Below are positions 14,578-23,121 of a stretch of DNA of 64,000 bases, one piece after another. Source of the DNA: Chloroflexota bacterium (GTDB taxonomy: Bacteria > Chloroflexota > Anaerolineae > JAAEKA01); contig JAKQCW010000180.1 of assembly GCA_029558955.1 (NCBI GenBank), positions 1,759-65,758 of the forward strand, given 5' to 3'. Position 1 is the stretch's first letter; each line of letters starts with the position of its first letter. A program made the translations under genes and the position numbers. The notes beneath the pieces are model-generated. The model was given only the letters and a program-made list of their open reading frames with translations, was not told where the DNA came from and did not search any database.

Positions 14578-16625
14578 AGCCCTGACCGCGCCCCCTCGTC
14601 TTCGACGTCGCCGGGGCGACCGGCCGGCTCGGAGCGTGTCTCGCCGCCGTGCGCGTCGCTGAGCTCGCTGGCGACGGCGGCTGTCTCCGACCGCGTCCCA
14701 TCGGCCATCTGCTGACTGACCAGCACCAGGCTGCGTTTCTGCGCCTGCCGCGCGCTCTGATAGCTCTCGTCGGCCAGTTGGCCGGAGGCATATAGATCAT
14801 CCAACTGGGCGATGGAGGCCAGCAACCGTTGCCGCTCCGCCGCGGGGTCGGGCGCGGCCGCAGGCGCCAGGGCCAACTGCGGCGCATCCTCCGCTGGCTT
14901 GGGCTTCAGCCACAGGTAGGCTGCCAACAGGGCCAGCGCGACCAGCAGCGTCGCCACGCCGACGCCGAACAAGAGGTTGGGGTTGTAGGCCACCACGGCC
15001 TTGGCGTCGGACGCAGCCGCCGTCGTCGCCACGCTGCTGCCGGCCTCGGTCAGGCCGCTCAGGCGCAGCTCGATGGCCGCGTTGGCCGGCAGATCGACCC
15101 CCTCGAAGCTGTTCCACTGCTCCTCGGCGACCGTCTGAGCGCCCAAGCTTTGCAGCGGCGTGCTCACTTCGATGCCGTCGATCACCAGCACATTCAGGCG
15201 TTGGACCGGGTAGGGGACGCTGTGCGCCAGCTCGGCCTGGTCGCCAGCGGCGGGCAGCAGGTAGCGCAGCAGGATCTGCGTGCCGCCGGGCGGCAGGGGC
15301 TGGGTATCCACCACCCCCTCAGCCGTGCGCACGAAGCGCTCGCCGACCTGCCCGCCGTCCAGCGTGACCGAGGTGGCCCCGGCCGGCAGGTTCAGGCGCA
15401 GGACCGCATGCTTGCCCGGTGCGATCTCCTCGCTGCCGGTGTAGACGGTGTCGCTGTCATGGCTGATGCGGTAGAGCTCGCCGACCAGCAGCGCGCCCTG
15501 GTGCGAATCGACGAACCACTGCGCCAGGTCCACGGTGATCTCACCGGGGGTGGCGCTGGCGTCGTAGACCTGCAGCGGCGTCTCCAGCGTCGTTTCTCCC
15601 TCGCCAAAGCGGACGATGTTGCTGCCGAAGCTGGCGTCGCTGTAGGTGGTGCTCAGCATGAACGCATACTGGGCGCCGGTGGGCAGATCGGCAAAGCTGA
15701 ACGAGCCGTCGGCGCCGCTCTCCACCTGCTGCGGCTGCAACGCTTGGAAATTGTCGAAGATGTTGAGCGTCACCAGGGCCTGCACCGGCTGGCCGGTCGT
15801 GCCGTTGAGCAACTGGCCGCTCAATTGGCCGGCGCCGGCCGGCGCGGCCGCCGCGACCGCTGGCGCAAAGGTGAAGCTGCGGGCATAGGCGACCGCCGCC
15901 CAGATCTCCTCGTCGGACAACGAGCTGGCGAAGGGGGGCATCTCGCCCTGGCCCGCGGCGGTGAGCGCGTGCCAGTCGGCCAGCGATCGGCCGGCCGTCA
16001 GCGCGGGGTCGGTCAAATCGGGCATGGCCAGGCCATCGGCGACCGCCTGGGGGCCGTCGCCGGCGCCGCCCGCGCCGTGGCAGGCCGCGCATTGTTGCTC
16101 CCACACCGCCGCGCCCTGGGCCAGCGCCGCGTCGCTGTTGTGCAGGTTCAGCGCATAGGCTGTCACGTCCCAGATCTGCTGGTCGCTCAGCCGGTTTTTC
16201 CAGGGGGGCATCATCTGCACCATGCGCCCCTCCTTGATCACCTCGAACCAGCCGGCCGGGGTGGCCTGGCGCGCCAGCGCGGGATCGGCCAGCACCAGCG
16301 CGTCGACATCGGGCAGATCGACGGCGGTGGGGCCGTCGCCCAGGCCGGTGGTCCCATGGCAAGGTGCGCAGTTCTCGGCGAAGAGCGCCTGCCCGTTGCG
16401 CGCGGCCGGGGGATCGGTGGGGATCTGATGGTCGGGGCGGGCGGAGGCCGGCGCGGGTGCGCTGAGCAGCGCCAGCAGCGCCCAGGCCATGCCGGCCAGG
16501 GCGCACAGGGCCAGTGTCAGCAGGCGTCGCTGGGGCCGGGCGGGCCGAAACCGTTCATCCCCCGGAGTGCCGATAGCTGTGGGCATGGCGCGCGACGGCG
16601 CCCTCTTGTTTGGTTGATCAGTCAT
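14574..16625 (-). CDS. Diheme class I cytochrome c multidomain membrane protein embedded in the ccm operon
   Basis: CAPCH and CAACH with downstream MPPW/MPPF Met ligands, beta-rich middle domain, C-terminal TM and CcmI-like tail. GTGA overlap with ccmA. Exact start uncertain. Confidence 0.8.
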   Translation of the reverse strand: MTDQPNKRAPSRAMPTAIGTPGDERFRPARPQRRLLTLALCALAGMAWALLALLSAPAPASARPDHQIPTDPPAARNGQALFAENCAPCHGTTGLGDGPTAVDLPDVDALVLADPALARQATPAGWFEVIKEGRMVQMMPPWKNRLSDQQIWDVTAYALNLHNSDAALAQGAAVWEQQCAACHGAGGAGDGPQAVADGLAMPDLTDPALTAGRSLADWHALTAAGQGEMPPFASSLSDEEIWAAVAYARSFTFAPAVAAAAPAGAGQLSGQLLNGTTGQPVQALVTLNIFDNFQALQPQQVESGADGSFSFADLPTGAQYAFMLSTTYSDASFGSNIVRFGEGETTLETPLQVYDASATPGEITVDLAQWFVDSHQGALLVGELYRISHDSDTVYTGSEEIAPGKHAVLRLNLPAGATSVTLDGGQVGERFVRTAEGVVDTQPLPPGGTQILLRYLLPAAGDQAELAHSVPYPVQRLNVLVIDGIEVSTPLQSLGAQTVAEEQWNSFEGVDLPANAAIELRLSGLTEAGSSVATTAAASDAKAVVAYNPNLLFGVGVATLLVALALLAAYLWLKPKPAEDAPQLALAPAAAPDPAAERQRLLASIAQLDDLYASGQLADESYQSARQAQKRSLVLVSQQMADGTRSETAAVASELSDAHGGETRSEPAGRPGDVEDEGARSGL

Positions 16626-16753
16626 GCCAAGCTGGACAAGAAAAGCGGTCGCCCGCCCCTGGGAACGAGCGACCGCAGATGATAGATGATACGGCGTGTG
16701 GGGACTTCCGAAGTCCTGAAGCTGAGTGGATCTCAGCCCATCATCAAGTCAGC

Positions 16754-16886
16754 GCTCGGGCCGGTCTCCGACCGAGCCCGCAGCCTCATCTCACTGCTCT
16801 CTCACTGCTCGGGCCGGTCTCCGACCGAGCCCGTGGACTTCAGGTCGCTCGGGCCGGTCTCCGACCGAGCCCGTGGACTTCAGGTC
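16754..16886. repeat. REP-like family B, 3 copies
   Basis: GCTCGGGCCGGTCTCCGACCGAGCCCG at 16754, 16807 and 16847. Confidence 0.85.
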
Positions 16887-16892
16887 ATCTGC

Positions 16893-17381
16893 TCAGCCAA
16901 TCGATTCGACCTGAATCTCCTCGTAGTCCATCGGCTTCTGCTCGCCGCCATGCTCCTCGTAGCGCGAGGGGCATTTGAGCAGCAGCGAGTTGGCGTAGAG
17001 CACGCCATCCTCGCCCAGCTTGCCCTCGACGATAGCCTCGGCCGCGCGCACGAAGTTGTCAGGCCGCGGGCCGTGGAAGTAGATGGGCAGTTGGTTCCCC
17101 TCTTCGCCGATGCTGAAGCGCAGGATCAGCTCGGAGGCGTTGTAATCGACGCTTTCATCGATAACCACGCCGCTGACGCGCACATTTTTGCCCACGTACT
17201 GCTCAGCCTGGGCCGTCAGCTCAGGCACGGTCATGTAGTAAGCGCCGGCGCTGCTCATGGCATTGAAGACCAGGAAGCCGATCGCGACGAAAATCACCAC
17301 CGCGCCGATGAGGAACTTGAACTTGCGATTGGCTGGCTTGGCCTCCAGTTGAGGGCCAGTCAGAATTGTCGACTCTGTCAT
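16893..17381 (-). CDS. ccmE: Cytochrome c maturation heme chaperone CcmE, CxxxY variant
   Basis: YYMTVPEL, VRVSGVV, VEGKL..ANSLLLKCPSRYE (Cys where canonical CcmE has HxxxY). Confidence 0.92.
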   Translation of the reverse strand: MTESTILTGPQLEAKPANRKFKFLIGAVVIFVAIGFLVFNAMSSAGAYYMTVPELTAQAEQYVGKNVRVSGVVIDESVDYNASELILRFSIGEEGNQLPIYFHGPRPDNFVRAAEAIVEGKLGEDGVLYANSLLLKCPSRYEEHGGEQKPMDYEEIQVESIG

Positions 17382-17426
17382 AGAGACTCTCCTAGCATGC
17401 TGAGGTCAGTTGGCTGGTGATGCGCG

Positions 17427-17455
17427 AGTATAGCATCAAAGCCGTCCGGTGTCAA
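17427..17455 (-). promoter_or_regulatory. Sigma70-type promoter of the ccm operon
   Basis: TTGACA-17-TATACT with extended -10 TG. Confidence 0.8.
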
Positions 17456-17494
17456 CGCCATTGTGCCACAGTTCTCAGCAATCAGGTATGATGT

Positions 17495-17745
17495 AGATCA
17501 CAAAAAGCCACAAGTTTTCCGAAATCAGCCCTGGACAGCAGCAGCGCCCATGAGAAGAACGGCCAGACGTCCCGCCGGTTCAGGAGCAGATTGACTGCCA
17601 GAGCCAGGCGGGACGCCCTTGGGATCGTGGCATGGGGCCGGTGTCTGCAACACCAGGCGCACCTATGCCACAGCGCGCTAACAAGTTGGCGTAAATAACT
17701 CTTCAGTTTACCTGCTCCCGGCGGATCCGTGATCCGCCGGGTTTG
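17495..17745 (+). ncRNA. Candidate structured non-coding RNA (unassigned; strand uncertain)
   Basis: Two nested hairpins (17568-17615, 17627-17671), upstream TATGAT at 17487, and an 11-bp terminator-like stem at 17717-17741 followed by TTT. Confidence 0.3.
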
Positions 17746-17815
17746 CGCCCACAACGCCGCCGGTTCACGGAACCGGCTTGAGCAGTGAGTGAAGACCGAT
17801 TTAGGCCGACGTGTA

Positions 17816-19696
17816 CTAGTTGGCCAGCGCCTGCTGGATCAACTGCTGGAAGGCCTCGATGGGGTAGGCGCCGGGCAGCGGGACACGGTTGACGAAGAAG
17901 CCCGGCGTGCCGCGCACGCCATAGCCGACGCCCTGCTGCAAGTTGGCCTCCACGGCGGCGGTATGTTTGCCGCTGTCCAGGCACTGATCGAAGGTGGCCT
18001 GATCCAGGCCGAGCTGGCCGGCGAAGCCCTTGAAGATCTCCGCGGCAGTGGCCTGGCCAGACCACTGCTGTTGGGTCTGGAAGAGCATGTCGTGCATCTC
18101 CCAGTAGGCCTCCTGATCGCCAGCGCAGCGGGCCGCTTCAGCAGCTTTGGGCGCCTGGGGATGGATGGAGGTCAGCGGGAAATCCTTGAAGACATACTGC
18201 ACCGTGCCATCGTCGATGTATTTTTGCAGCTCAGGCCAGACCTGGGCGAAGTGGCGTTGGCAGAAGGGGCACTGATAGTCGGAGTATTCGACGATCACCA
18301 CAGGCGCGTTGGGGTCGCCCTTGGTGGCCGCGGCATCGTCCAGCGGCGCATCCTCCGGCAGCGGCGCGGGGGTCGGCTCCGGCGCGGGGGTCGGCTGCGG
18401 GGGCGGGGCGATGCTCAGCCCCTCGTTGACCATGGCGATGGCCCGACGGAAATTCTCGATGGGCTGGGCGCCCACGAAGGGCTGGCCGTCCAGGAAGAAG
18501 GTGGGGGTGCCCTGCACGCCGAAGTTCAGCCCCTCCATCAGGTCGGCCTGAACGGCCTCGGCATGGCGGCCGCTGCTCAGGCACTCGCCGAAGGCGGCGG
18601 CATCGGCAACGCCCGCCTCGCTGGCATAGCCGGCGAACAGCGCGGAGGGATCCGCCTCGCCGCCCCAGGTCCCCTGGTTGGCAAAGAGGATATCGTGCAT
18701 GGCCCAGAACGCGTCGTCGGCGCCGACCAGCTCCCGCACACAGCGGGCCGCCTCAGCCGCCTTCTGCGCGTTGGGATGGATCTGCTCCAGCGGGAAATCC
18801 TTGAAGACCAGCTTGGCCTGGCCGTTGTCGATGTATTCCTGCACCAACGTGGGCCAGGTCTGCGCGGCGAAACGGGCGCAGTAGGGGCACTGGAAATCGG
18901 AGTAGGTCACGATGGTCATGGGCGCGTTGGGGTCGCCCTTGACCGGCGCTCCCTCGATGGGGATGTCTACCCGCTGCGGGGCCTGAGCCTCCTGGCCGGC
19001 CGCGTTGGGATCGACCAGCGCGCCGCCTGCCAGCAGCGTGTCCAGCGCCTGCTGGAAGGCGGCCAGCGGCTGGGCGCCGACCACCAGGTTGCCATTGATC
19101 AGGAAGCTGGGGGTGCCGGAGATGCCCGCGGCCTGGCCATCTTGCAGATCCTGGGCGATGGCCGCATCGAACTCTCCGCTGCTCAGACAGGTCAGAAAGG
19201 CGGCCGTGTCCAGGCCCATCTGGCTGGCGTAGCTCTGGAAGGTCTCGCTGGGATCAGCCAGGCTCGACCATTCGTCCTGATTGCCGAAGAGCCGATCATG
19301 CATGCCCCAGTAGTCCCCCTGCTCGCCGGCGCAACGGGCAGCTACGGCCGCGGCCATGGCGTTGGGGTGCAGGCTCTCCAGCGGGAAATCGCGGAACTCC
19401 AGGCGCACCTTGCCGGCGTCGATGTATTGCTGCAACAGCGCGGGGTAGGTTTCTTCGACCCAGCGGGAGCAGAAGGGGCACTGATAGTCGGAGTATTCGA
19501 CGATGGTCACGGCGGCGTCGGGGTTGCCCTTGCTGCGCACATCGTCGCTGGCGGCCGCGGGCGCCGCGGGCGCGGCGCCCTCCTGGCTGGGAACGCTCGG
19601 CGCGACGCAGCCGGCTGCCATGATCAACACAGTCAGAAACAGGACAAACAGCATGGGAGCCAGCCGGTTCTGCGGCAGGCGAAGGTAGTTGTGCAT
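17816..19696 (-). CDS. Lipoprotein with three tandem DsbA/BdbD-like thioredoxin domains
   Basis: EYSDYQCPFC, TYSDFQCPYC and EYSDYQCPFC, each with a GTP cis-Pro loop. Lipobox AAGC. ATG 19696 after GAGGA. Confidence 0.9.
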   Translation of the reverse strand: MHNYLRLPQNRLAPMLFVLFLTVLIMAAGCVAPSVPSQEGAAPAAPAAASDDVRSKGNPDAAVTIVEYSDYQCPFCSRWVEETYPALLQQYIDAGKVRLEFRDFPLESLHPNAMAAAVAARCAGEQGDYWGMHDRLFGNQDEWSSLADPSETFQSYASQMGLDTAAFLTCLSSGEFDAAIAQDLQDGQAAGISGTPSFLINGNLVVGAQPLAAFQQALDTLLAGGALVDPNAAGQEAQAPQRVDIPIEGAPVKGDPNAPMTIVTYSDFQCPYCARFAAQTWPTLVQEYIDNGQAKLVFKDFPLEQIHPNAQKAAEAARCVRELVGADDAFWAMHDILFANQGTWGGEADPSALFAGYASEAGVADAAAFGECLSSGRHAEAVQADLMEGLNFGVQGTPTFFLDGQPFVGAQPIENFRRAIAMVNEGLSIAPPPQPTPAPEPTPAPLPEDAPLDDAAATKGDPNAPVVIVEYSDYQCPFCQRHFAQVWPELQKYIDDGTVQYVFKDFPLTSIHPQAPKAAEAARCAGDQEAYWEMHDMLFQTQQQWSGQATAAEIFKGFAGQLGLDQATFDQCLDSGKHTAAVEANLQQGVGYGVRGTPGFFVNRVPLPGAYPIEAFQQLIQQALAN

Positions 19697-19707
19697 GATT
19701 GGATTCC

Positions 19708-20685
19708 TCATCGTTGCGGATAATGGGTATTGACGTCCATGGGAGTGAAGTTGGCCGGCGTTTCGGCGTTTTCCTGCACGCTCGGCGCGGCGATGTAGCC
19801 ACATTCGCCCCCCACCAGCGGGCTGGCAGCCTGCGACTGAGAGACGGCGCTGGCGCTCCAGAGTGCAACAGCCAGGGCCAGGCTGATGGCCAGCCGGCGC
19901 AGCAGCCGTGGATCCAGGGATCTCCGGCCTGAGGGCTCGCCCTCCAAGAGGCGTTGGATGCGGCCAGCGGTGGCCGAGGGGCGGGCAGCCGCCAGGCTGG
20001 CGCGGGCTGGTGCAGGCGCGCCGGCCCGCAGCAGCTTCACCAGAGCCGCGGCCAGCGCGTGGTTTGCGCCGCAGGCCGCGTCGGCGTCAGCTTCCTTGGC
20101 TTCCATGTAGAGCTCACACAAGGCGGCGGCGGCGGGCAGGAAGAAAAGCGCCTGGGCCAGGCTGCGGGCCAACAGCACCCGCAGCGGGTCGCGCCGGCGC
20201 AGGTGATGGCGCTCATGGCGCAGCACCGCGGCCAGCTCGGCCTCATCCAGCAATGCCAGCAGGCCGCTGCTCAGCCAGATGGCCGGCCGCGCCAGGCCGG
20301 CGGCAAAGGCGTAGGGCTCCGGATCGTCCACCAGCGCCAGGCGGCCGGTCAGCCCCAGGGCGTCGACCAGTTGCGCCAGGCTGGGGGGGAGGGGGGAGCG
20401 CCGGCTGGCCAGATCCCCCAGCAGGGCGCGGGTGAAGCGCAGTTGGGAGAAGAGCTTGCCCAGGCCGGCCAGCGTCGCAGCCAGCAGCAGACCCAACGGC
20501 AGCAACAGCCCGGCCAGCGGCAGATAGCCCTCCACGGCCTGACTGGCGCTTTGGCAGGCCAGCCAGATGCCGCGCGCCAGGTGTGGACTCTGCCACGCCA
20601 GCAGCCCCAGCAGCAGGGCCGCCGTGGCCAGCGCCAACGCCAGCAGGGCAGCGAAGGCGGCGCTGGCGCTATTGCGGCTGGTCAT
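19708..20685 (-). CDS. M56-family (BlaR1/MecR1-like) membrane metallopeptidase
   Basis: AVLRHERHHLRRRDP (HExxH), EAKEADAD, RIQRLL. Directly downstream of the BlaI-like gene. Confidence 0.88.
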   Translation of the reverse strand: MTSRNSASAAFAALLALALATAALLLGLLAWQSPHLARGIWLACQSASQAVEGYLPLAGLLLPLGLLLAATLAGLGKLFSQLRFTRALLGDLASRRSPLPPSLAQLVDALGLTGRLALVDDPEPYAFAAGLARPAIWLSSGLLALLDEAELAAVLRHERHHLRRRDPLRVLLARSLAQALFFLPAAAALCELYMEAKEADADAACGANHALAAALVKLLRAGAPAPARASLAAARPSATAGRIQRLLEGEPSGRRSLDPRLLRRLAISLALAVALWSASAVSQSQAASPLVGGECGYIAAPSVQENAETPANFTPMDVNTHYPQR

Positions 20686-21115
20686 CGCCGGCCTCCATCT
20701 GCGCGCGTCGCCGTTCCTGCACCAGGCGTTCCAGCTCGGCCAACTGCTCTGGGTCGATCTCATCCAGCGTCTCCACGAACTGGGCCACGGCCAGGCTGCC
20801 GAAATCGCGCACCAGGCCGCCCATGATGGCCCGTGAGACGCGGCAGAGAAAGGCCTCGCGGCTCTGGCTGGCGCGATAGACGAAGGCGCGCGATACCCGC
20901 TGCCGGGTCAGGGCGCGCTTCTCCACCAGACGGTTGAGCACGGTCATCACCGTCTTGTAGTTGTAACTGGGCCCCAGATGGTCGCAGACCTGCTGCACGG
21001 TGGGCTGCTGCAAATCCCACACGGCCTCCATGACCTTGGCCTCCAGCTCGCCGAAGACGCGCGCCATGCCCTCCTGATGCAGACGAAAGGACTGGATGGG
21101 TAGGCTGTGGCTCAT
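20669..21115 (-). CDS. BlaI/MecI/CopY-family transcriptional repressor
   Basis: GELEAKVMEAVW, NYKTVMTVLNRLVEKR..RAFVY. No CopY C-terminal Cys motif. Confidence 0.92.
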   Translation of the reverse strand: MSHSLPIQSFRLHQEGMARVFGELEAKVMEAVWDLQQPTVQQVCDHLGPSYNYKTVMTVLNRLVEKRALTRQRVSRAFVYRASQSREAFLCRVSRAIMGGLVRDFGSLAVAQFVETLDEIDPEQLAELERLVQERRRAQMEAGDDQPQ

Positions 21116-21199
21116 ATTGCCTCTGAATCCTGCTAAGAAGCTGGCCCAAGGGCCCGGACGATTCCTGATCTTCCGGCGCGCCGAGGGCGGCATGCGAAG

Positions 21200-21235
21200 T
21201 CTTACGGATTATAAGAGCATGGCCATTTTTGTCAA
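21200..21235 (-). promoter_or_regulatory. Promoter of the BlaI operon with candidate operator
   Basis: TTGACA-16-TATAAT. Near-palindrome TCTTAC-N5-ATAAGA (21200-21216) overlaps the -10. Confidence 0.7.
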
Positions 21236-21280
21236 GATCGCCGAATCAACAAATGGGAACGCGCCCCACAAAAATACGCT

Positions 21281-21547
21281 GGTTGAGTAGGCCGCCGTAT
21301 CGAAACCACCGTTGGTTGAGTAGGCCGCCGTATCGAAACCACCGTTGGTTGAGTAGGCCGCCGTATCGAAACCACCGTTGGTTGAGTAGGCCGCCGTAGC
21401 GAAACCACCGTTGGTTGAGTAGGCCGCCGTATCGAAACCACCGTTGGTTGAGTTGGCCGCCGTATCGAAACCACCGTTGGTTGAGTTGGCCGCCGTATCG
21501 AAACCACCGTTGGTTGAGTTGGCCGCCGTATCGAAACCAACCGTTGG
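21281..21547. repeat. Tandem array of REP-like family A, 8 x 33 bp
   Basis: Unit GGTTGAGTAGGCCGCCGTATCGAAACCACCGTT. Last three copies carry GAGTTGG. No variable spacers. Confidence 0.92.
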
Positions 21548-21661
21548 CACCCAGCGGAGGGCTTCGACCCTTGCACCTGCGCTGCGCTTCGGCGCAAGTG
21601 CAGGTGTACGCCGCAGAAGGCTACTCAACCAGCGGCATCCGCCACGCCAAGGCAGGGCCGG

Positions 21662-21931
21662 CTATGCTGGCTCGGCCTCTTCCTCCTCCTCCCCGCCAGA
21701 CTCCAGCAGCTCGATGGCCTGGGCGGCCAGCGGCTCCGGCACAAAGACCCGCACCTCGGCCATGCCGCCGATGGTGAACCCGTAGACTTTGCTGGCGGCA
21801 TCGCCCTGCAACATCACCGGAATGCCGTTGCTCTCCAAGAAGCTCTTGACGATCTGAGCTTCCAGGTCGTTGGCGGCCACACACACCTCGACCGGCGGGC
21901 CGGGATGGATCGATTGGTCGTTGCTTGTCAT
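21662..21931 (-). CDS. DUF2007-like small protein
   Basis: EAQIVKSFLESNGIPVML..EVRVFVPE..A.ELL pattern. Confidence 0.75.
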   Translation of the reverse strand: MTSNDQSIHPGPPVEVCVAANDLEAQIVKSFLESNGIPVMLQGDAASKVYGFTIGGMAEVRVFVPEPLAAQAIELLESGGEEEEEAEPA

Positions 21932-21983
21932 CTTTCAATTCCCTTCGCAGATGCAGCGTTCTCCAAGATCGGGGTTTCCACCG

Positions 21984-22895
21984 TCACGCGTCGCCCGGTT
22001 CATCGACTGCGGCCGCGCTATCCACCGCCTCCGGCGCGCTGGCCGCGGGCGTGGGCTTCCAGTTGCGATGGCGCAGGATCAGACCGACGACGCCGATGAC
22101 CAGCAACATCAGGCTGATCAACTGGGCCGTGGCCAGGCCGGGCAGGCCGCTGACCCAGGCGTCGGGCCGGAACATCTCGACGATCAGGCGGCCCAGGGGG
22201 TACCAGATCAGATAGAAGAGGAAGATATCGCCGTCGCGCAGCCGGTGATACCAGCGGCGGCCCAAGATCATCACCAGGGCAAAGCCGACGACATTCCAAA
22301 GCGATTCGTAGAAAAAGGTGGGGTGGAAGCGGGTGACCGTCACATACTCCAAGATCTCCTGCGGCGAGCGTCCCAGCATCTCGGTGGGCGTCTGGAAGGG
22401 GAAGTTGGTGTTGATCTTGAAGCCCCAGGGCAGGGTGGTGGGGGGGCCGTAGAGCTCCTGGTTGATGAAGTTGCCGAAGCGACCCAGCGCCTGCGCCAGC
22501 AAGACGCCGGGGATGACGATGTCGAACCAACGCGGGATGTTGAGCCGCCGCACGCGCAGGTAGATCAGCAGGGCGAGGAAACCGCCCAACACCGCGCCGA
22601 AAATGCCCAGCCCGCGAAAGCCGCCCGACCAGAAATTGATGATGTCCAGCGGATGTTCGCGGTACCAGCTCCAGCCCAGCCCGCCCACCGGGTTGGAGAA
22701 GACGTGGTAAAGCCGTGCGCCGATGATGCCGGCGATCAGGATCCAGGGCAGCACGTTCCAGATGTGTTCCGGGTCTTCGCCGCGGCGCTTGGCCTCGAGG
22801 GTGGCGATCCAGGCGCCGACCACAGCGCCCGCCACGATCAACAATCCATACCAGGTTACGGAAAAAGGACCGATCGATATCAACACGGGATTCAT
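21984..22895 (-). CDS. lgt: Prolipoprotein diacylglyceryl transferase
   Basis: SVTWYGLLI, GARLYHV, QALGRFGNFINQELYG, HPTFFYES. Start at ATG 22895. Confidence 0.96.
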   Translation of the reverse strand: MNPVLISIGPFSVTWYGLLIVAGAVVGAWIATLEAKRRGEDPEHIWNVLPWILIAGIIGARLYHVFSNPVGGLGWSWYREHPLDIINFWSGGFRGLGIFGAVLGGFLALLIYLRVRRLNIPRWFDIVIPGVLLAQALGRFGNFINQELYGPPTTLPWGFKINTNFPFQTPTEMLGRSPQEILEYVTVTRFHPTFFYESLWNVVGFALVMILGRRWYHRLRDGDIFLFYLIWYPLGRLIVEMFRPDAWVSGLPGLATAQLISLMLLVIGVVGLILRHRNWKPTPAASAPEAVDSAAAVDEPGDA

Positions 22896-22941
22896 GCCAC
22901 GCTCCAAAACAGACGAGATGGCGCCAGGGCGGCGCGGCTGC

Positions 22942-22970
22942 ATTATACCCACAAGCAGACCACAGGCCAA
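22942..22970 (-). promoter_or_regulatory. Promoter for lgt
   Basis: TTGGCC-17-TATAAT. Confidence 0.6.
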
Positions 22971-22983
22971 GCTGCTGGCATGA

Positions 22984-23104
22984 CAGCAATTCCAAATATG
23001 GCGATTGCCAAACTGGAGTCGAGGCTTCAGCCGGGTTTGCACGCTCAACTCGCATCGTCCAGACCCGGCTGAAGCCTCGACTCCGCCCATATTTGGAATT
23101 GCTG
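22984..23104. mobile_element. 121-bp MITE-like element
   Basis: Perfect 17-bp TIRs CAGCAATTCCAAATATG (22984-23000 / 23088-23104). 9-bp direct repeat CTGGCATGA at 22975-22983 and 23105-23113. Internal GGAGTCGAGGCTTCAGCCGG palindrome. Confidence 0.85.
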
Positions 23105-23121
23105 CTGGCATGAGCCGCGGC

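Follow-up and report, generated by a model that had tools for sequence, protein, structure and literature searches.

A BlaI-type repressor, a membrane protease with two outward-facing cysteines and a triple-DsbA lipoprotein: a candidate thiol- or copper-responsive operon in a Chloroflexota bacterium

The stretch of DNA considered here, called the window, covers 64,000 nucleotides of a Chloroflexota bacterium (assembly GCA_029558955.1, contig JAKQCW010000180.1, positions 1,759 to 65,758). On its minus strand, from position 21235 to 17816, lies a compact operon in which a promoter and a dyad-symmetric site are followed, packed without gaps, by the genes for a BlaI-family repressor, a membrane zinc protease and a lipoprotein with three DsbA-like domains. 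On balance, this is probably an autoregulated three-gene operon run by a repressor-cleaving switch of the BlaI/BlaR1 type, gated by an outward-facing pair of thiols and responding to copper or disulfide stress. The predicted wiring of the switch has direct comparative support: a repressor whose operator overlaps the -10 box, a zinc protease in the membrane, control of the operon by its own repressor, and the triple DsbA as the only output. In databases, near-identical proteins bear the names of Anaerolineae (Chloroflexota).

An earlier note on this DNA, made from its letters without database searches, had described a BlaI-M56 "one-component system" controlling a triple-DsbA lipoprotein. The three proteins it named are borne out by Pfam and NCBIfam matches, including the three CPxC motifs of the lipoprotein (CPFC, CPYC and CPFC), and so is its placement of the operon upstream of, and co-oriented with, a ccm/ccdA cluster, which follows on the same strand. 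The term "one-component" does not hold, since the sensor and the repressor are separate proteins and the system is a two-protein one. The features of the operon are collected in Table 1.

Table 1. Features of the operon and its 3' flank, numbered from the first letter of the window
Feature	Position	Strand	Remarks
Sigma-70 promoter	21208..21235	-	-35 TTGACA (21235-21230), 16-nt spacer, -10 TATAAT (21213-21208)
Operator (putative), block CTCTTATAATCCGTAAGACTT	21197..21217	-	Dyad CTTAT-N5-GTAAG (TCTTA-N7-TAAGA) at 21200-21216
BlaI/MecI/CopY-family winged-helix repressor, 148 aa	20669..21115	-	Pfam PF03965 Penicillinase_R
Sensor protease (putative), M48/M56 zinc metalloprotease, 325 aa	19708..20685	-	Pfam; start overlaps the end of the repressor gene
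Cys44 codon (WLACQ)	20554..20556	-	Outside loop between TM1 and TM2; in all orthologues
Cys295 codon (GGECGY)	19801..19803	-	Outside C-terminal tail; in all orthologues
Triple DsbA-like lipoprotein, 626 aa	17816..19696	-	Lipobox Cys30; three Thioredoxin_4 domains, CPFC, CPYC, CPFC
REP-like repeat, two GC-rich hairpins	17686..17815	.	Directly 3' of the DsbA stop; ~100 genomic copies

The promoter matches the sigma-70 consensus at 12 of 12 positions (TTGACA-16 nt-TATAAT, minus strand, 21235..21208), as the earlier note had seen. Thirty such perfect promoters occur in the whole genome, which is metagenome-assembled, 4.59 Mb in size, 66% GC and 94% complete. Across 10 aligned orthologous upstream regions, the columns of TTGACAA and of the -10 box are invariant. 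The palindrome that the note placed over the -10 box is also present. On the plus strand it reads TCTTAC-GGATT-ATAAGA (21200-21216), with 6-bp arms and one mismatch or, in an alternative reading, perfect 5-bp arms (TCTTA-N7-TAAGA), and it covers part of the -10 box and the likely transcription start. A genome scan for the palindrome, suggested in the same note, returned this single occurrence in the 4.59 Mb assembly. Base-composition arithmetic gives a chance expectation of ~0.6 per 4.6 Mb for a 5+5 dyad of such composition, and because one chance match per genome would be unsurprising, the argument for an operator rests on position and conservation. In 14 loci from 5 genera, the block [C/G]TCTTATAAT[C/G]CGTAAGACTT is the sole conserved non-coding sequence, varying at two or three positions, and the promoter spacer, the upstream region and the 85-nt leader have all diverged. 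A position-weight-matrix scan of the genome found no further operators (the runner-up scored 15 vs 43.6 for the true site), and no Rfam match to an RNA element was found in 16400-22100. The dyad at 21200-21216 is thereby supported as a candidate operator of the repressor.

Sites of the same kind recur in relatives. In sister orders, eight loci (L039, L040, L044, L046, L048 and L056-L058) have CTTAC-N5-GTAAG before blaI and a second time in the gap from the protease gene to the next operon; at two of these loci, each of the positions has the site twice. The downstream operon there encodes a PD40 beta-propeller lipoprotein, DUF1573 (with CxC), a SurA_N::TlpA fusion, DUF2085 and CcmE, and the repeated dyads appear to define a small regulon of envelope thiol proteins. 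Other relatives have canonical TACTACA-N3/4-TGTAGTA boxes. Because sites recur before a thiol-redox operon or a dsbA gene in relatives, the dyads seem to behave as operators, with thiol oxidoreductases as the regulated output. The N5 spacing of the relatives' dyads also makes the 6-N5-6 description of the earlier note the right frame for the window site. A TAC-N5-GTA core is common to these sites and the canonical boxes; the window site has one arm only that matches it, and the second arm is TAT and doubles as the -10 box. Compared with CTTAC-N5-GTAAG, one arm has changed from C to T and therefore reads TATAAT.

A low-GC metagenome-assembled genome labelled Gammaproteobacteria (L054, 2975-8558) has the order CopA-blaI-M56-dsbA(CPFC)-CcdA, the last fused to a cupredoxin-like domain, with canonical TACTACA-N3-TGTAGTA boxes before both blaI and the single-domain dsbA and three cysteines in the protease tail. 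It appears to be an independent BlaIR-DsbA pairing in a distant genome.

The repressor matches PF03965 at 87.2 bits (cut-off 22.6) over profile positions 2-115 of 115. Its best match in PDB is M. tuberculosis Rv1846c (2G9W), with BlaI and MecI also matched. Q112-F113 (AQFVET) aligns with the MecI/BlaI cleavage site N101-F102 in a shared, conserved xFVE motif, and identity across the family orthologues is 74-88%. The gene was placed by the earlier note from a start at 21193. It begins instead at ATG 21115, giving the N-terminus MSHSLPIQSF, because the peptide MSHSLPIQSFRLHQEG is kept in orthologues; these begin with GTG, and one of them has no internal Met. The genome holds no BlaI/M56 paralogues elsewhere, so this is its single pair.

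The protease scores 48 bits against the M48 profile and 35.2 bits against M56 (PF05569, cut-off 31), the latter match being confined to the catalytic part (positions 171-293 of 296), and its motif is HERHH. H157, E158, H161 and E198, that is, the HExxH motif and the downstream Glu ligand, are invariant in orthologues. A sequence search of PDB with the protease gave no match. Its AlphaFold2 (AF2) model has a predicted local distance difference test score (pLDDT) of 84.7 and helices at 6-45, 54-94 and 259-287. The best fold match is the cryo-EM structure of S. aureus BlaR1 (8EXP). Ste24-type M48 proteases come next, and the TM-scores, ~0.37, are low. No PF00905 match was found, and the protein ends ~44 aa past the last transmembrane helix (TM); it has no penicillin-binding or transpeptidase domain. 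The earlier note had pointed out this absence. The domain is indeed missing, but this is the norm among M56 proteins. According to a 2026 survey, ~6% of M56/BlaR-like proteases carry a penicillin-binding domain or can bind beta-lactams, and the signals of the rest are unknown (PMC13492132).

What is left outside the cell for sensing is small. The predicted topology runs from an inside N-terminus through TM1, an outside loop (22 aa), TM2, the cytoplasmic HExxH domain and TM3 to an outside tail of ~44 aa, and hydropathy, the AF2 model and charge distribution all agree on it. Per 100 aa, the N-terminus has 12.7 lysines and arginines and the protease domain 12.6, vs 2.3 for loop 1 and 3.6 for the tail; the TM3/tail boundaries used for the charge and cysteine counts were ~10 residues off, with no material effect on them. 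By the positive-inside rule, C44 and C295 would be outside the cell. The earlier note had pointed to this conserved-looking pair (CQ and GECG). Exactly one loop cysteine (C44) and one tail cysteine (C295) are present in 20/20 orthologues, and the two cysteines of the cytoplasmic domain are not conserved.

The cysteines outlast nearly everything else in the outside parts. An exhaustive HMMER search with the protease against 1.84 billion cluster representatives found 6,058 relatives at E<=1e-3 and 1,404 at E<=1e-10, and the orthologous group makes up two representatives only. The BlaI-M56 pairing is present in all relatives examined. Among the best 150 representatives, 123 could be scored by a simple TM caller. 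Outside cysteines lie in both loop and tail in 69 of these, and a further 11 have two or more within a single segment (80/123), with 3.9 cysteines per 100 aa outside vs 1.3 in the cytoplasmic domain. A tail motif x-E-C-x recurs in many database representatives. At ~27 of 38 loci, the relatives have either one loop cysteine and at least one in the tail, or at least two in the loop and none in the tail. In distant relatives only the cysteines survive; the sequence around them differs, and so does their place, which is either loop plus tail or the loop alone.

The gene neighbourhoods of relatives point in the same direction as their operators. At 20 loci from 19 further Chloroflexota genomes, a TlpA-like thioredoxin, CcdA/DsbD_2, SCO1, DUF305 or a P-type ATPase lies within 6 kb in 17 and within ~2 kb in 14; the chance rate per locus, from gene density in the window's genome, is ~4% (6 kb) or ~1.3% (2 kb), and because the loci are not phylogenetically independent, binomial P values exaggerate the significance. 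For example, one relative has the order CopA-YHS-CsoR...DsbD_2-blaI-M56...P-ATPase...Csp, another CopA-DUF305-x-blaI-M56-PD40-DUF1573-SurA_N::TlpA-DUF2085-CcmE, and in a third SCO1-TlpA-CcdA faces blaI-M56. In a Herpetosiphonaceae metagenome-assembled genome (L049, 2438-8412), blaI-M56 sits between a divergent HMA-type CopA gene and a convergent gene for tyrosinase, a copper enzyme; the protease there has two cysteines in loop 1 and no tail.

The output of the operon in the window is the triple DsbA. Its start is most likely ATG 19696 (MHNYL), which has GAGGA in front, lies 11 nt past the protease stop and agrees with the 626-aa gene call; the alternative is an ATG at 19711, which overlaps the stop codon of the protease gene. 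The protein matches PF13462 (Thioredoxin_4) three times, at 359.7 bits, and the NCBIfam entry NF041057, "Rcas_1661 family thioredoxin-like (seleno)lipoprotein", also three times, at 424.6 bits (cut-off 190). Each domain has another Cys pair as well as a Thr-Pro (cis-Pro) loop, GTP, and the lipobox-like sequence is LIMAAGC. A word-indexed search gave 5,329 matches, those listed having 45-52% identity at ~90% query coverage, and all three CP[FY]C motifs are kept in 118 of the best 120 homologues. The protein is common in Anaerolineae, and in other orders it occurs in housekeeping contexts without BlaIR. In those orders a gene of ~310-330 aa follows it (L084, 8078-9025; L085, 8070-9062; L086, 7966-8892), with a weak ScmC (PF27840) match in two of the three loci and no Pfam match in the third. 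This gene may be a conserved partner of the triple DsbA; it is absent from the window.

When a single domain is compared with known structures, C. diphtheriae DsbA (4PWO) scores E 5e-20, BdbD 3e-13 and the ScsC structures 7e-8 to 5e-7. An isomerase of the ScsC type was considered as the closest class and rejected, as its scores fall far short of those of MdbA, BdbD and S. aureus DsbA. Since the single domain sits nearest to oxidases of monoderm bacteria (C. diphtheriae DsbA, BdbD and S. aureus DsbA) and farther from ScsC and DsbG, an oxidase role is the more likely one for the triple DsbA. It would not be alone in that role. Elsewhere in the genome, a single-domain DsbA gene is followed directly by a VKOR gene (C196:5307-6253), probably the housekeeping disulfide-forming pair, and a second VKOR domain lies within a 472-aa open frame (C83:5314-5691), possibly a fusion protein. 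No DsbB was found in the genome, which has two VKOR genes instead. Because a separate DsbA-VKOR pair exists, the triple DsbA would be an extra, regulatable copy and not the sole disulfide-forming enzyme. In B. subtilis, apocytochrome c is oxidised by BdbD and then has to be reduced again by ResA/CcdA. Since oxidation of the BdbD type is opposed in this way, a regulated DsbA beside ccm genes would be sensible.

The mechanism that these observations suggest can be told in a few steps. At rest, a dimeric BlaI-family repressor bound to the single dyad, across the -10 box and the start of transcription, would repress its own gene and those of the protease and the triple DsbA. The signal would be the chemical state of C44 and C295, be it free thiols, a disulfide or a Cu(I)-thiolate. 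Copper, or an imbalance of thiol oxidation in the envelope, would alter the pair and thereby activate the cytoplasmic HExxH domain, and the active protease would cut the dimerisation helix of the repressor at or near Q112-F113. Derepression would then lead to more triple DsbA, an accessory, surface-anchored oxidase like MdbA or BdbD, beside the cytochrome c maturation machinery. We infer the cleavage by homology with BlaI/MecI and PetRP, the sensor role of the thiol pair from conservation, topology and context, and likewise the direction of the response. As the signal, copper and redox imbalance appear about equally likely. The copper neighbours and the PetRP precedent favour Cu(I) binding, and the oxidoreductase outputs and the nature of outside thiols as DsbA/TlpA substrates favour redox. 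The proposal of the earlier note, that BlaI/BlaR logic is repurposed for extracytoplasmic thiol or metal stress, thus stands as far as the wiring, the outward cysteines and the thiol-redox and copper neighbours go; its choice of signal is still a suggestion.

How the operon has been kept in the order bears on how much the regulation matters. An orthologue of the protease was found in 13 of 18 genomes sampled from the order (5/6 genera). Identity to the window proteins is 65-83% for the triple DsbA and 49-77% for the protease, and all loci that extend far enough have the gene order lgt-DUF2007-blaI-M56-dsbA3-ccmE-cytochrome-ccmABC-ccdA-tlpA. Three loci (L020, L022 and L023, from G013, G012 and G001) have blaI, and partly dsbA3, split across frames in tblastn, probably by assembly indels rather than as pseudogenes. 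Three genomes of the same family (G008, G015 and G017; L076, L077 and L078) have lgt-DUF2007-dsbA3-ccmE without blaI-M56, so the regulatory pair seems to be a cassette gained or lost before a resident gene.

Public sequencing runs give a first look at expression. DNA identical to the locus was found in activated-sludge and wastewater runs, and contigs identical to it in four metatranscriptome runs. In RNA runs X6/X7, contig depth, an average over contigs that break at repeats and as such a crude measure of expression, was 87-93 for lgt/DUF2007, 227-404 for blaI-M56, 252-352 for dsbA3, ~500 for ccmE and 127-133 for the cytochrome gene. The operon thus has 2.5-4.6 times the RNA depth of the lgt/DUF2007 contig, and the DNA runs of the same study are flat, with all five regions at 11-14 in X8 and 400-427 in X9. 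Across the promoter itself, RNA depth goes up from 87-93 on the upstream side to 314-404 on the downstream side. These depths suggest that the promoter at 21235 is active, that the operon is partly expressed in sludge and that ccmE, which has an 11/12 promoter of its own at 17455-17427, is transcribed separately.

Several points weigh against a thiol-gated switch. The three family genomes that lack the cassette imply that regulation by BlaI-M56 is dispensable. The tail of the AF2 model has a pLDDT of ~50, and C295 is not confidently placed relative to C44; the outside pair could simply be a structural disulfide, the organism having DsbA and VKOR. The outputs differ, with an oxidase-like DsbA here and reductase-like TlpA/CcdA in relatives, so that a single redox logic does not readily account for both. 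No operators were found before the CopA genes that neighbour the cassette in relatives, even when 2-3 mismatches were allowed. As to expression, the RNA contig extends ~100 nt upstream of the predicted transcription start, and the depth measure is coarse.

Among the other explanations, one is a narrower version of the proposal just described, in which the protease senses copper directly, as in PetRP, and Cu(I) bound by the two outward thiolates activates it. The triple DsbA would then be a copper-stress protein acting against wrong disulfides catalysed by copper and so protecting cytochrome c maturation. Such a sensor is less likely than not. It can draw on the copper genes that flank relatives (CopA, CsoR, Csp, tyrosinase, SCO1, cupredoxin, and DUF305 with a P-type ATPase), on the copper-dependent degradation of PetR by its protease partner (10.1101/2020.07.31.226407), and on the fact that the best NCBIfam match of the repressor is CopY/TcrY (TIGR02698), though at 42.2 bits it falls far under the cut-off of 121.95. 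It is at odds with the locus itself, which holds no copper gene, the CopA and CsoR genes of the genome lying elsewhere, and with the tendency of free extracellular thiols to become oxidised. Also, the commonest neighbours of the Chloroflexota relatives are TlpA and CcdA, not copper pumps, and since the adjacent CopA genes have no operator, copper export would be outside the regulon and the pumps would merely be neighbours.

In another explanation, the outward cysteines are a sentinel substrate of the regulated oxidoreductase. When the triple DsbA, or TlpA in relatives, fails to maintain the proper redox state of the pair, the protease would fire and more of the enzyme would be made. This idea is rather doubtful, a little more so than the copper sensor. 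If it were true, a BlaR-type protease would be gated by a disulfide, and a signal could be assigned to a large "orphan" BlaIR clade, with 1,404 representatives at E<=1e-10 and outside cysteines in most of the best 150. For the system of the window as a whole, proteobacteria offer a parallel in NlpE-Cpx and ScsABCD, in which outside sentinel cysteines report on DsbA function or copper stress and DsbA-like proteins take part in copper tolerance. The analogy is a functional one only, since those are two-component systems that do not work by repressor cleavage, and ScsC is not as close to the DsbA domains here as MdbA, BdbD and S. aureus DsbA are.

A structural role for the cysteines has to be weighed as well. 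Here the pair would form a disulfide pinning the tail to the loop, and the tail would sense something else, for example envelope proteins that have misfolded, a peptide, a cue from the cell wall or a partner protein. The conservation of the tail does reach beyond its cysteine in orthologues (AASPLxGGECGY...TPAxFTP), the DsbA and VKOR of the genome could form such a bond, and the tails of other atypical BlaR proteins are short and unstructured, with ligands unknown (PMC13492132). Even so, across distant relatives only the cysteines survive while their context and location shift, and the regulated outputs in most loci are thiol-disulfide oxidoreductases, which leaves this explanation an unlikely one.

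It is more improbable still that the operon has no dedicated signal, with an HtpX-like housekeeping membrane protease and a repressor that autoregulates the operon to set its level. The M48 (HtpX-type) profile outscores M56, expression is seen in sludge with no inducer known and three related genomes do without the cassette, all of which would fit. What does not fit is the overlap of the repressor and protease genes, a signature of BlaIR systems (~96% of M56 proteins adjoin BlaI; PMC13492132), together with the retained cleavage-site motif; the strict conservation of the outside cysteines would also be left unexplained. Finally, a classical beta-lactam sensor for resistance or a metal-binding repressor of the CopY type has nothing but the family names in its favour and is very improbable, given that the protease has no transpeptidase or penicillin-binding domain, that the operon has no beta-lactamase and that the repressor (42 bits vs a CopY cut-off of 122) lacks the C-terminal CxCx4CxC cluster, its only cysteines being at positions 44 and 91.

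The surroundings of the operon are of interest in their own right. Downstream, on the same strand, are genes for CcmE, a 683-aa dihaem cytochrome c, CcmA, CcmB, CcmC, CcdA, a TlpA/ResA-like thioredoxin and DUF2085, the CcdA gene lying 6 kb downstream. Upstream are a DUF2007 "signal transducing" protein and Lgt, the prolipoprotein diacylglyceryl transferase (21662-23111), and both are directly upstream in all family members, with or without the BlaIR cassette. The element 3' of the triple-DsbA gene, similar to repetitive extragenic palindromic (REP) sequences, probably marks the end of the transcription unit. Three repeats surround the operon: the 130-bp hairpin element just named (17686-17815), at which assemblies break and depth spikes in all runs; a 30-40-bp unit before ccmE (16750-16890), with ~300 genomic copies; and a 33-bp unit repeated eight times in tandem upstream (21280-21547), with ~80 genomic copies. 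In public runs, these REP-like elements bring about assembly breaks and 10-360-fold depth spikes.

Some parts of this picture have been seen before. BlaIR systems without a beta-lactam sensor are already known and are the majority of the family (PMC13492132), and so is a copper-responsive pair, PetRP of Synechocystis, in which a protease of the M48/M56 type degrades its BlaI-family repressor only when copper is present (Garcia-Canas et al., 10.1101/2020.07.31.226407; PNAS 2021). Like PetR and PetP of Synechocystis sp. PCC 6803, the window has overlapping genes for a BlaI-family repressor and an M48/M56 protease without a penicillin-binding domain; for both, a short outside loop is the presumed reader of the signal, and the output belongs to envelope electron transfer or metal economy (cytochrome c6/plastocyanin in Synechocystis). 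The differences are also clear. PetP is described as having four predicted TMs, with two conserved Met in the loop that joins TM2 and TM3, whereas the protease here has three TMs, a loop Cys and a tail Cys, and no Met pair of the PetRP type is conserved in its outside loop. The operator of PetR is GAC-N5-GTC vs CTTAT-N5-GTAAG here, and the output here, unlike that of PetRP, is a triple DsbA in the same operon. Copper dependence has been shown for PetRP.

The system also shares with BlaI/BlaR1 and MecI/MecR1 of S. aureus a winged-helix repressor with an xFVE region, an HExxH membrane protease, a putative operator that overlaps the promoter and a probably self-regulated operon. Unlike BlaR1 and MecR1, the protease has no C-terminal sensor domain and three TMs rather than four, and the output is neither a beta-lactamase nor PBP2a. 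Short tails without a penicillin-binding protein (PBP) domain and envelope-related regulons are found in CenIR of C. difficile (PMC13492132), Rv1846c/Rv1845c of M. tuberculosis and PvmSR of P. aeruginosa (10.64898/2026.08.03.742534). The signals of these three are unknown, with neither a thiol pair nor a thiol-oxidoreductase output reported, and the sensor and output in the window suggest a class of signal. A search of the literature found no paper that links BlaI/M56 with DsbA, TlpA or Chloroflexi, or that describes a BlaR clade with a Cys pair.

For the family, the clade gives a clear lead on the signals of orphan BlaIR systems. The outside part of its proteases amounts to a loop and a tail, of which the Cys pair is the sole widely conserved feature. 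The signal also becomes directly testable. The genes under control encode envelope thiol-disulfide oxidoreductases and frequently have copper genes nearby, and the natural presence and absence of the blaI-M56 cassette could reveal what the regulation adds. For the organism, the operon bears on the control of disulfide formation in monoderm Chloroflexota, a group abundant in activated sludge, beside cytochrome c maturation, a process in which an oxidase and the CcdA/TlpA reducing branch oppose each other.

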